From the NCBI GenBank assembly GCA_018780035.1, contig JADMKE010000029.1:65388-129387 (forward strand): a stretch of DNA of 64,000 nt, written 5' to 3'. Positions 26,506-29,384 of this stretch are shown in pieces. Source of the stretch: Candidatus Sericytochromatia bacterium. Lineage in GTDB: Bacteria; Cyanobacteriota; Sericytochromatia; UBA7694. A model generated the notes under the pieces. The model was not told where the DNA came from. It searched no databases and saw only the letters and a list, made by a program, of their open reading frames with translations. Position numbers and translations under genes: made by a program. Every line of letters starts with the position of its first letter. Position 1 is the stretch's first letter.

Positions 26506-28533
26506 TTAAGTGGAATAAATATGCTCAAAGTTGCGCGTATAATCGCTTAATTCACAGAGGTATTCTGCCCCGTGGGTGGCATGGGCCTCGAGTTTGCCTG
26601 TTTCTCGGTTAAAGCGGTATTCCCGCGCACCGTAACTGAGTATGCCTGTGGCATTCAGCACCCCAGACAAGGTCTCTGACATATCTCCCCAGGGATTGCG
26701 CAGTCGCACAAAACGCAAGGGGGGGCCATCTGCGGGACCCGGATATCCCCGATCTCCTGGCCGCAATTCTACTGCACCTGTGATCGCAAAATCGTGGCCC
26801 CCTACCAACCCGTGAATGACCTCTTCTCCAGCCGTGCCGACCCCTCCGGCCTCACCGTCTTCCGCAGCAAGGGTGTGGCGAGAGCCTGTTCCCATGGGTT
26901 TGCCTGCGGCCAAGCCGGCCTGAATTTGTTCGAAGAGGGCTCTTTGGCTGTCGGCATAGATTCCTGAGCCCCGGGCTCCAGAAAGTTGAGGTTCGAGCAG
27001 ATGCAGCAATCGCTGCTGGTTTTCAGGGCTCAGAGTCAGCGGAGAGGCCACTTTGAGAATACTTTGCTGAACGGCCTCTGAGAGTGGGGGGGTGACTCTT
27101 TTTAAGGCGTCGATCACGGCTTCACGGCTTGTCAGCGGCGGCAGAGCCCGCCAAGCAGAGATCAGGCTCTTGGTCAAAGCAGGTGTTTCGAGATGATCGG
27201 CCCGCAAAGCTGTGCGAATTGCGCTCAGGGTCTGAGGGTCTCCCAAACGCACGGGAGACTGGGCTGAAACCAATTCATGGATGGCTTCACGGGTAACCGG
27301 GCCGCTTTTTTCAAGCGCGATCAGGGCCTGGGCCCTGGGAACCATGGCTTGCATAAACAGAGCCAACTCACGGACTTGTGGATCCCGCTCTTGTTCTTGG
27401 CTGCTGGGCAAGACAAAGGCTTGTCGCAGAGCGGCAGACAGGGGGGTGGCCTGGATCTCCTGTTTGATTGCAGGCTGACCGAGCAGGGTTTCGTAGATAT
27501 CGCTGGCGAAACCCCCTTCTCCCATTCGGGCGTAAGAGCCAGTATGAATGGCATAGGCTTTTTCCAACAGCGCCACCCAGGGGGCCTCTTTGCTGGCGTG
27601 TTCGCGAATGGCAAAGTCGGTGTGTAAAACAGACTTATCAAAGGTCAGGTATTTGGGGGCAAAGGTCTTCTGACCCTCGGCGGTTTTGACATCAAATAAT
27701 TTAACCGTGACCGTGCCATCGCCATTGTCACGAATCATGTCTTTTACAGCCTCGGGCTTTTGGGCCACAATGCTTGCAAGGCCAGCCATGAAATAACAAT
27801 CCCCAATCGCCCCCTGTTTGATATCCCGAACACTGGGGGGATGTGGGAACAGAGCCGCGTTTTCATCCAGGGCCTTGTGGCTGCGGGCCTGGAAGTGGGA
27901 GGCAATGTCGCGGGTATAGACATAACCTTTGAAGTCAAAGACCAGATTGTCATCGTCATCGTGGTGGTATTTTTCGACAGCCAGAATATGGGGGTTGTCG
28001 GTGCGGCTATAGGTACAGTGCTCCCCTTTTGAGACATCCAGAAAATCGCCTGGGGAGAGATCTCCCCGGATCTGCGTGGGATCTGTTTTGTAGATGCGGG
28101 TCGCGTGGGCAAATTTGCCTTTGATGCCTGGATCTTGTGAGCGCTCAGGAACCGTTCCCGGCGGCAGATTGAGGGTGCCTCGGGCATAGGGCGGCGGAGG
28201 GGGCGTGGTGAATAGTTTCGCAAAGAAATGGCCAAGACTTGACGCTTTGAGCCACGCCAAGACGCCCGGCCGGGCAGCCACCCGTTGAATCTGATCGGCC
28301 CCATGTTCTTGGGCTTGAGCCATGACCGCTTCGGGCAATTGCGGGGCCGTGAGGTTGCGCAGGACCGCCGTTTGGGTTTGACTTTGCTGAATCTGGGCGT
28401 GCATGGCCGTGCTGGGTGGAGCGGTTGCTGGGGTCACTCCCGGTGACTGTGGTGCCTGTGGAACCGCAGGTGGTGCACTGGGGGAGAGGCTGGCTGAGGC
28501 GCCAGATGTGACGCGATGTATGCCAATATTCAT
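26506..28533 (-). CDS. Calpain-like (peptidase C2) cysteine protease with Pro/Ser-rich N-terminal region and a large insertion between the Cys and His boxes
   Basis: QGAIGDCYFMAGLASIV (calpain Cys box QGxLGDCW), GHDFAITG (His box), RLRNPWG (Asn box). AAGGAG SD. ATGA overlap with the upstream partner. Confidence 0.7.
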   Translation of the reverse strand: MNIGIHRVTSGASASLSPSAPPAVPQAPQSPGVTPATAPPSTAMHAQIQQSQTQTAVLRNLTAPQLPEAVMAQAQEHGADQIQRVAARPGVLAWLKASSLGHFFAKLFTTPPPPPYARGTLNLPPGTVPERSQDPGIKGKFAHATRIYKTDPTQIRGDLSPGDFLDVSKGEHCTYSRTDNPHILAVEKYHHDDDDNLVFDFKGYVYTRDIASHFQARSHKALDENAALFPHPPSVRDIKQGAIGDCYFMAGLASIVAQKPEAVKDMIRDNGDGTVTVKLFDVKTAEGQKTFAPKYLTFDKSVLHTDFAIREHASKEAPWVALLEKAYAIHTGSYARMGEGGFASDIYETLLGQPAIKQEIQATPLSAALRQAFVLPSSQEQERDPQVRELALFMQAMVPRAQALIALEKSGPVTREAIHELVSAQSPVRLGDPQTLSAIRTALRADHLETPALTKSLISAWRALPPLTSREAVIDALKRVTPPLSEAVQQSILKVASPLTLSPENQQRLLHLLEPQLSGARGSGIYADSQRALFEQIQAGLAAGKPMGTGSRHTLAAEDGEAGGVGTAGEEVIHGLVGGHDFAITGAVELRPGDRGYPGPADGPPLRFVRLRNPWGDMSETLSGVLNATGILSYGAREYRFNRETGKLEAHATHGAEYLCELSDYTRNFEHIYST

Positions 28534-29384
28534 AAATTTACTCCTTTCTCATGCAGGTGTGTTTGTACCTGCTCCACGGTGTCAGCGAGTTTTGCGTAAT
28601 CTGCTTCGAGTTCAGATACAGGAATTCCAATCGATTCAAGGGCGTTGATTTCGTCGGCCAACTCATCGCAATGACTGAGGGTTTGGACCAGCTCTTGCCC
28701 CGCCAAGGGCGCATTGGACTCTGTGAGTCGATCTAAACTGGCGGCTGTGTCCCGCTCTTCGCTCAGACGCGTGTGTACCTCTTGCAATTCGCAAGACAGC
28801 TGCAGGGCTTTTTCAAAGAGCTCCAGCCGCTTGGCAATGGGAGGCAGTTTCTCTCGCTCTTCGGGCAAAGCGAGATCTGAGAGTTCATCATATTGGCGGC
28901 GCAAAGCGATGGCCTGTGCCTCAAGTTGTCGAAGACCTTCCTCTTCGGCACAGGGTTCGGGTGGCGGGGATTGAGAAATTTCTCGGATGGTCTTTTCCAA
29001 CAAGGCCTCAAAGCGCTGTTCAAAATGCGGATTTACCTGCCGGGGGGTGCTGTCTGTATGAATCAACTGACTCAAGCTGGCAGCACTGGGATTGCCCGGA
29101 TCGATGCGCAGGGCTTCGGCGAGATAGTGCAACGCTGCGCTGCGGTTATCAAGCAGCAGCATCAAATACGCCAAGGCAATGTAAGGATCGGGCAGATGGT
29201 GTTGGTGGCGAATGGCGTCGAGTAAGAGCTGACATGTTTCCCGCAATTGGCTGGGATCGTTAAACCCCGCTGCTTGGGCCTGAGCAAAGCGATTCATGCC
29301 CTCTTCATACGCTTGGGTGGCGATAGCATGGCGCTGATCCGACAGACTGCCTTTTAAATCTTCAAGTTCTTCTAATTTGTTCAT
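28530..29384 (-). CDS. TPR-like helical protein co-translated with the calpain-like protease (start at internal ATG 29384)
   Basis: GGAGGTG SD 6 nt before ATG 29384 (MNKLEELEDLK...). The ORF-track start at 29519 is probably too long. Helical repeat character. Confidence 0.5.
   Translation of the reverse strand: MNKLEELEDLKGSLSDQRHAIATQAYEEGMNRFAQAQAAGFNDPSQLRETCQLLLDAIRHQHHLPDPYIALAYLMLLLDNRSAALHYLAEALRIDPGNPSAASLSQLIHTDSTPRQVNPHFEQRFEALLEKTIREISQSPPPEPCAEEEGLRQLEAQAIALRRQYDELSDLALPEEREKLPPIAKRLELFEKALQLSCELQEVHTRLSEERDTAASLDRLTESNAPLAGQELVQTLSHCDELADEINALESIGIPVSELEADYAKLADTVEQVQTHLHEKGVNL

Follow-up and report, generated by a model that had tools for sequence, protein, structure and literature searches.

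The window analysed here is a stretch of 64,000 nucleotides from contig JADMKE010000029.1 of a Candidatus Sericytochromatia bacterium. On its reverse strand lie two overlapping genes, one for a calpain-family (Peptidase_C2) cysteine protease of 675 amino acids (aa), encoded by the open reading frame (ORF) at positions 26506-28533, and, directly upstream at 28530-29384, one for a 284-aa partner that combines a TPR domain with a helical bundle. The original prediction, made from the letters of the window, had described a calpain-like protease with split catalytic boxes, coupled to a TPR-like chaperone, inhibitor or immunity partner. We find that the pair recurs in several calpain lineages and that the partner belongs to a large family whose members precede proteins of unrelated folds, a pattern more in line with a chaperone or adaptor than with an inhibitor or immunity protein.

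The protease and its helical insert

Peptidase_C2 (PF00648) is the sole Pfam match on the protease, reached in two stretches with 73.2 bits against a gathering score of 23.8 (E 2.4e-20); no NCBIfam model matches it, and its sequence matches in the PDB are limited to calpain protease cores. All three calpain boxes anticipated by the original prediction are in place: QGAIGDCYF (residues 240-248), GHDFAITG (579-586) and RLRNPWG (610-616) align with the catalytic-Cys, His and Asn boxes, respectively, of calpain-9 and calpain-5, and the oxyanion Gln and the catalytic Cys, His and Asn keep their order within these conserved boxes. Gln240, Cys246, His580, Asn613 and Trp615, together with the flanking motifs, are unchanged in an alignment of 12 homologues reaching down to 26% identity. 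The AlphaFold2 (AF2) model of the protease, with a mean predicted local distance difference test score (pLDDT) of 74.5 and a predicted template modelling score (pTM) of 0.66, finds significant neighbours in the PDB only among calpain cores, those of calpain-9 and calpain-3 (probability 1.00; TM(target) 0.56-0.59; root-mean-square deviation (rmsd) about 9 Å), and the predicted fold is the two-subdomain, papain-like arrangement of PC1 and PC2. Given the Pfam and PDB alignments, the invariant residues and the match of the model to calpain cores, we regard the protease as a genuine calpain-family enzyme with a triad that is intact by sequence, and it appears catalytically competent. In NCBI, a 75%-identical homologue already bears the label 'C2 family cysteine protease'. 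A search of the protease for a signal peptide or a transmembrane (TM) anchor found neither.

The protease can be divided into five regions. Residues 1-120 (28174-28533, reverse strand, as for all regions of both genes) comprise a basic Pro/Ser/Ala/Gln-rich leader (residues 1-67), modelled with pLDDT below 50, and low-confidence helices (residues 68-120), with pLDDT of 42-65 up to residue 120. Over the first 80 aa the P+S+T+Q+A+G fraction is 0.69, the isoelectric point (pI) of the first 120 aa is 10.9, and the alignment reveals a short conserved L-T-A-P-Q/E-hydrophobic motif within the leader region. The N-terminus is thus as disordered-looking as had been noted, and we propose that the leader and the N-terminal helices form a partner-binding or targeting region. 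The following beta-rich N-domain (residues 121-225; 27859-28173) has strands at residues 137-221 (pLDDT 79-90) and a weak resemblance to SH3, with SH3 matches at E of about 0.1; residues G119, L121, P135, G136 and G170 are invariant in the alignment. PC1 (residues 226-360; 27454-27858) carries Gln240 and the catalytic Cys246 (codon 27796-27798), and PC2 (residues 526-675; 26509-26958) carries His580 (26794-26796), Asn613 (26695-26697) and Trp615. Between them, at the PC1/PC2 junction, sits an all-helical insert of about 165 aa (residues 361-525; 26959-27453), with about 10 helices modelled at residues 364-516 (pLDDT 74-88). By extrapolation from separate PC1 and PC2 profiles, the two subdomains lie 170 aa apart.

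This discrete helical domain accounts for the unusual spacing of the catalytic residues. Cys246 is separated from His580 by 334 aa and from Asn613 by 367 aa, and the equivalent block spacing in calpain-9 is about 161 aa (query 236/574 against chain 80/241), in agreement with the earlier estimate of about double the classical distance. Classical calpains (CAPN1/2/9 core) share with the window protease the fold, the order of the triad and the separate PC1 and PC2 whose alignment forms the active site, but their Cys-His core is contiguous, at about 160 aa, and they carry C2-like (calpain III) and penta-EF-hand domains, none of which was detected in the window protease, which ends with PC2. The insert is positioned at the hinge whose closure forms and aligns the active site in classical calpains and is therefore an obvious site for the regulation of activity; the insert may serve such a regulation. 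As judged from offsets, Asp237, 9 residues before the catalytic Cys, would correspond to Asp96 of calcium site 1 in calpain-2, and offsets and alignments place the conserved D345 and E348 near the Glu position of the same site, with site 2 not evident.

To place the split core in context, calpain relatives were scanned in one genome per species, yielding at least 55 loci, and the PC1-PC2 gap was measured with the same pair of profiles. Among the matches listed, extrapolated gaps of 150-350 aa are found in over 25 ORFs of Bacteroidota, Bacillota (including Lachnospiraceae and Butyrivibrio) and Sericytochromatia, and gaps of 37-60 aa in other bacterial calpain ORFs. Homology of the insert to those of Bacteroidota and Bacillota calpains was rejected (hhalign probability below 4%), and phmmer with the insert as query recovers the close clade only, where alone its sequence is conserved. 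Since long gaps occur in several lineages and the inserts have no detectable relationship to one another, the PC1/PC2 junction is a place where bacterial calpains have acquired inserts repeatedly. The split core highlighted by the original prediction is real, but, by these profile distances, it is common to many other bacterial calpains and not peculiar to the window protein. Large calpain homologues of gut bacteria, 800-1100 aa in length and often in tandem pairs, carry PC1-PC2 inserts of about 200 aa that are unrelated to that of the window (L013, L015 and L018-L020 in Bacteroidota; L014, L016, L022, L030 and L032 in Bacillota; L-numbers here and below denote individual loci).

Bacterial calpain homologues are rare, as the original prediction had remarked, devoid of EF-hands, mostly devoid of calcium sites and essentially uncharacterised, none of them having been characterised convincingly (Rawlings 2015, PMC4631099); inserts go unmentioned in that paper, in which the word 'insert' has no occurrence. 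The bacterial C2 calpains described so far (MEROPS C2; P. gingivalis Tpr, PMC4631099; cyanobacterial, PMC9380684) are patchily distributed, have the same Gln/Cys/His/Asn core as the window protease and, like it, lack EF-hand (PEF) and calpain-III domains. However, a helical insert, a leader and a beta domain such as those of the window protease are not described in these publications; it further differs from the published proteins in having no signal peptide, PPC or discoidin domain, and in being preceded by a conserved partner gene.

The partner gene and its conserved pairing with calpain

The partner gene starts with the ATG at 29384, just downstream of a GGAGG; homologues of the same length, 284 aa, support this start. 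Its TGA stop codon overlaps the ATG of the protease as ATGA, and an AGGAG lies within its 3' end, which upholds the predicted translational coupling of the two genes. A promoter and terminator scan of the operon returned nothing above shuffled expectation. The protein is acidic (pI 4.7), and its AF2 model is all-helical (pLDDT 84.9), with long helices at residues 119-279. Single-sequence matches of the partner to TPR models in Pfam and NCBIfam are sub-threshold; positions of about 43-120 of the family profile match genuine TPR proteins (YrrB, E 9e-13), so the 'TPR-like' label was well chosen. The N-terminal TPR domain (residues 1-115; 29040-29384) contains about two TPRs and is followed by a helical C-terminal domain of about 165 aa (residues 119-284; 28533-29030) that carries the family motif [LM]D.CD..AD...Y, of which the window copy reads LSHCDELAD. 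In 43 sequences, D240, A243 and Y263 of this domain are invariant and C239 and D244 nearly so. Profile positions 161-246 have a weak match (E 1.5e-3) to S. aureus EsxA (WXG100). Assignment of the partner to a known chaperone, inhibitor or defence protein was rejected, as Pfam, NCBIfam, PADLOC, PDB sequence and Foldseek searches point to generic TPR proteins only, those of Foldseek with E of at least 0.01. With the anti-phage models of PADLOC, the partner has a weak coiled-coil match to LmuB (E 9e-4) and the protease has no match.

The pairing of partner and calpain extends well beyond the window. Relatives of the window calpain are encoded on two contigs of metagenome-assembled genomes (MAGs) at 97% and 93% identity, and a partner homologue lies immediately 5' of the calpain in 6 of the 9 distinct calpain lineages. 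In the window and in L002, L009, L010 and L067-69, the two genes meet in the ATGA overlap (junction -4 nt) and the partner has its full length of 284 aa. Full-length partners are also found in L001 (312 aa, junction -11 nt) and L008 (299 aa, junction +10 nt). In L005, L006 and L066, whose calpains are 27% identical to that of the window, the junction is +18 nt and the partner is reduced to a TPR domain of 112 aa, suggesting that this domain is the essential part. Recurrence in independent lineages shows that the adjacency is not due to chance, and the conserved pairing provides strong evidence for a functional link between calpain and partner.

Between the calpain and a DUF938 gene, positions 23700-26450 of the window encode a HEAT-like protein of 342 aa, a GFA-family protein and a WYL/HTH (helix-turn-helix) regulator. 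These three genes are missing in the 93%-identical L067, where DUF938 directly follows the calpain, and the block resembles a recent indel beside the operon.

The family of the partner is both large and lineage-specific. In an exhaustive HMMER search against 1.84 billion cluster representatives (50%-identity clusters), 1,173 representatives reach E<=1e-3; a threshold of 1e-10 leaves 490 of them and one of 1e-30 leaves 104. A word-indexed search recovered few relatives. Nearly all members are 290-340 aa long and matched over their full length, and all named members sampled come from MAGs of Sericytochromatia, Blackallbacteria, Melainabacteria or Obscuribacterales, where they are annotated as hypothetical or TPR proteins, with several paralogues in single MAGs. 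Four longer proteins, P0093, P0107 and P0122 (738-759 aa) and P0130 (535 aa), contain 2-4 partner-profile stretches each, which suggests tandem or fused versions; P0122 is located on the same 286-kb contig as L001. In the literature searched, this family and its interchangeable neighbours appear to be undescribed, and nothing relevant was found on secretion or effectors in Sericytochromatia.

Downstream genes of the partner family and the rest of the window

Neighbours of partner-family genes were sampled through three direct look-ups and by searching JGI metagenomes with a degenerate DNA pattern derived from the C-terminal motif. The pattern hit 49 metagenome loci, 30 of which contain true family members; the other 19, and four viral matches, encode no partner-family ORF and are therefore ascribed to chance. 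A phage or mobile-element origin of the pair was rejected, given that IMG/VR contains no calpain relative and that the viral pattern matches lack a partner-family ORF. Where at least 500 nt of sequence follow a distinct family gene, a tightly coupled ORF on the same strand (at least 150 aa, starting at -11 to +23 nt) comes next in 24 of 36 cases, and in 13 of the 25 sampled independently of calpain. The proteins encoded there, which we refer to as putative payloads, belong to unrelated families, namely calpain, a TM-hairpin protein, Peptidase_C80 proteins, APP1_cat and several orphans.

The TM-hairpin protein (625-648 aa) has a disordered N-terminus, coiled coils and two adjacent hydrophobic helices, predicted to span the membrane, and its gene is always followed by a conserved gene of about 195 aa. 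This three-gene operon was found in L001 (758-4220, reverse strand), L064/L065 (10001-13438, forward), L105 (605-4044, forward), L119 (1066-4539), L083 and L122. Neither the TM-hairpin protein nor the product of the third gene has a significant match in Pfam or the PDB; in outline, the operon recalls chaperone-translocator and adaptor-toxin-immunity cassettes. The MAG JBPXJQ01 encodes a partner paralogue, the TM-hairpin protein and a 199-aa third gene as well as a calpain 97% identical to that of the window, and in L001 the calpain cassette lies about 3 kb from the TM-hairpin cassette.

Peptidase_C80 proteins of 458-1020 aa (E 1.8e-8 and 4.9e-6), each with a Pro/Ser/Thr-rich leader, are tightly coupled to partner-family genes in L105 (5500-7995), L120 (4945-6321, reverse), L087 (3070-6132, reverse) and L116 (4056-6998). 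Peptidase_C80 is the protease domain by which MARTX/TcdB-type toxins process themselves; the window protease belongs to C2, and its link to such toxins runs via the partner family only. In L070 (8001-10120), an APP1-type phosphatidate phosphatase of 382 aa (E 5e-41) with a Pro-rich leader starts 23 nt after a partner-family gene, the convergent neighbour being a multi-TPR protein of 864 aa with an HTH domain. Directly 5' of the partner-family gene in L071, positions 5137-5901 encode a protein of 254 aa that matches a DOT1-like methyltransferase (E 3.8e-5), with a score that narrowly exceeds the Pfam cut-off. Finally, the calpain of L001 is followed by two proteins whose C-terminal domain is of the T6SS VgrG3-like, cell-wall-hydrolase type (10137-11465 and 13137-14702), which lack signal peptides and start with MQVNP... 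and MQVNS..., like the MQVNSQ... of the calpain.

None of the putative payloads carries a signal peptide, and no marker domain of the LXG, MIX or PAAR type was found on those examined. What most of them share is the composition of the leader: the PSTQAG fraction of the first 80 aa is 0.47-0.70, compared with 0.26-0.38 in four downstream genes whose products do not resemble payloads. A motif within the first 15 aa, [ILVFM]G.{1,3}V[STN], is present in 8 of 19 payloads and 18 of 754 background ORFs, and recurs in three payload families (MNIGIHRVT, MAGDLGRVVS, MATPIGRPVSP, FGRVNSIVP); being defined post hoc, over-fitted and drawn from non-independent sequences, it can serve as a lead but does not amount to a test.

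Elsewhere in the window, at 257-3671 and 8796-9671, a low-GC block (0.36) and a tyrosine integrase about 5 kb away together resemble a defence island on a mobile element; the products of the block are a GmrSD-type restriction endonuclease, a protein with a RelA/SpoT domain and one resembling N6 DNA methylases. Within 14001-20000, the GC content changes abruptly: it is 0.62 across an HrpB-type helicase gene and 0.35-0.42 between 16 and 20 kb, where a multi-TPR protein of 445 aa and a DUF1993 protein are encoded. A HEAT/Armadillo-repeat protein of 1408 aa with a signal-peptide-like N-terminus is encoded at 31665-35891, and genes of the mevalonate-pathway type, for a diphosphomevalonate decarboxylase-like protein and a GHMP kinase, lie at 56148-58291.

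Possible roles of the gene pair

The reading that we prefer, and to which we give about an even chance of being correct, is that of a two-gene operon in which the partner is a dedicated chaperone or adaptor and the protease is one of several interchangeable, probably exported payloads. The first gene would provide a small acidic protein of TPR and helical-bundle type and the second, translationally coupled to it, the calpain-type protease. Using its TPR groove and its helical domain, the partner would bind freshly synthesised protease at the leader and the N-terminal helices, thereby acting as a dedicated chaperone or adaptor and not as an inhibitor of the active site. In favour of this role, the family lies upstream of proteins with unrelated folds, and its distant members are reduced to a TPR domain of the peptide-binding kind. 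The opposite charges of the acidic partner (pI 4.7) and the basic leader (pI 10.9) fit such recognition. The same family would serve the TM-hairpin protein, the Peptidase_C80 proteins, the APP1-type lipid phosphatase and the calpain, and would probably hand them to a Sec-independent route of export or delivery. We infer physical binding, the chaperone role and export from this arrangement, export being plausible because the other payloads are toxin-like and their N-termini leaderless (that is, without signal peptide) and disordered.

Genes for small, acidic proteins of helical or TPR type that lie upstream of varied leaderless payloads and are coupled to them, as here, are known from class II chaperones of the type III secretion system (T3SS; LcrH/SycD/IpgC), adaptor-effector pairs of the type VI secretion system (T6SS) and Lap-LXG pairs of the type VIIb secretion system (T7SSb). 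One of the partner paralogues stands ahead of the TM-hairpin protein, whose coiled coils and two predicted TM segments recall a translocator in outline; searches of Pfam and the PDB assign it to no translocator family. T3SS class II chaperones are about 160 aa long with three TPRs, whereas the partner has 284 aa, with about two TPRs and an additional helical domain, and no LcrH/SycD/IpgC-type profile in Pfam or NCBIfam matches it at E<=1. As for T7SSb, neither partner nor payloads have a significant LXG or WXG100 match in Pfam, and the weak EsxA similarity is insufficient to invoke a type VII-like route.

Several observations weigh against a dedicated chaperone for exported payloads. Secretion machinery, including a type III apparatus, was found neither in the 64-kb window nor in the flanks of L001 and L065. 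The original likening of the N-terminus to secreted effector leaders gains from the similar leaders of other downstream proteins but lacks a secretion-system gene in the window. The partner matches no known chaperone family in Pfam, NCBIfam or Foldseek searches. An N-terminal marker domain common to the payload families was rejected (hhalign probability of at most 0.2%), so that the payload N-termini are alike mainly in composition, and the leaders of the singleton payloads L085 and L122, with a PSTQAG fraction of 0.36-0.38, fall within the non-payload range. Moreover, about half of the family genes that were not sampled via calpain are not followed by a large, tightly coupled ORF, 2 of the 13 coupled downstream genes look like housekeeping genes, and the calpain lineages L003, L007 and L011 have no adjacent partner.

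In the main rival, a credible one that we consider less likely, the protease is a cytoplasmic regulator, the TPR partner its substrate-recruiting or regulatory subunit, and the family a general scaffold for enzymes, with no export involved. The lack of a signal peptide on the protease and of secretion genes nearby in the window would be expected under this view, eukaryotic calpains are cytoplasmic regulators, some partner-family genes adjoin ordinary-looking enzymes, and certain protist calpains, in Naegleria, have fused TPR domains (PMC4631099), linking the two domains in the manner of a Rosetta stone. Yet the recurring neighbours of the family, the TM-hairpin and Peptidase_C80 proteins, look toxin-like and not regulatory, this view does not account for leader-type N-termini being shared by unrelated payloads, and in L001 the calpain stands beside hydrolase-domain proteins of VgrG3 type that share its MQVN start and its lack of a signal peptide.

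The original prediction had left open whether the partner is a chaperone, an inhibitor or an immunity protein, and of these the chaperone or adaptor fits best. That the protease is a toxin whose active site is blocked by a cognate inhibitor or immunity protein until release seems to us improbable. Translational coupling would supply the two proteins in matched amounts, and co-transcribed pairs of a bacterial cysteine protease and its dedicated inhibitor have a precedent in staphopain and staphostatin. However, inhibitors and immunity proteins are normally specific to one fold, and homologous partners precede unrelated ones; the most distant pairs retain just the TPR domain of about 110 aa; the partner is encoded upstream, and the TM-hairpin cassette has a separate gene of about 195 aa in the usual downstream position of immunity genes; and known cysteine-protease inhibitors do not resemble the all-alpha TPR fold of the partner. 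Least of all do we believe in a non-catalytic homologue acting as a binding scaffold, for although active-site residues are missing from about 9% of calpain homologues (Rawlings 2015, PMC4631099), and the large hinge insert and the rmsd of the model to calpain cores would allow for an altered active-site geometry, Gln240, Cys246, His580, Asn613 and Trp615 are invariant even among distant homologues.

Returning to the chaperone or adaptor reading, a wider version, which we put forward tentatively and with more doubt than belief, would have the partner family mark an undescribed effector repertoire of the non-photosynthetic cyanobacterial lineages, with leaderless payloads that share one type of disordered N-terminal signal, are each escorted by their own TPR-helical chaperone and are delivered into other cells. 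These payloads would comprise the calpain, toxins with a C80 domain, a lipid phosphatase and hydrolases of the cell wall, and along with the translocator-like TM-hairpin protein they would travel by a Sec-independent system, possibly into eukaryotic prey or hosts.

A calpain-type protease with both a conserved partner and an insert at its hinge offers a direct handle on how such proteases are controlled. The partner family, which counts more than 1,000 50%-identity clusters and is present several times in a genome, suggests that Sericytochromatia and Melainabacteria, uncultured and non-photosynthetic relatives of cyanobacteria, possess a set of exchangeable, toxin-like payloads. If the payloads are exported effectors, they would provide a first clue to the interactions of these organisms with other cells, and the family motif could be used to mine for new effectors. 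Should effector delivery prove true, it would indicate a predatory or host-associated lifestyle.

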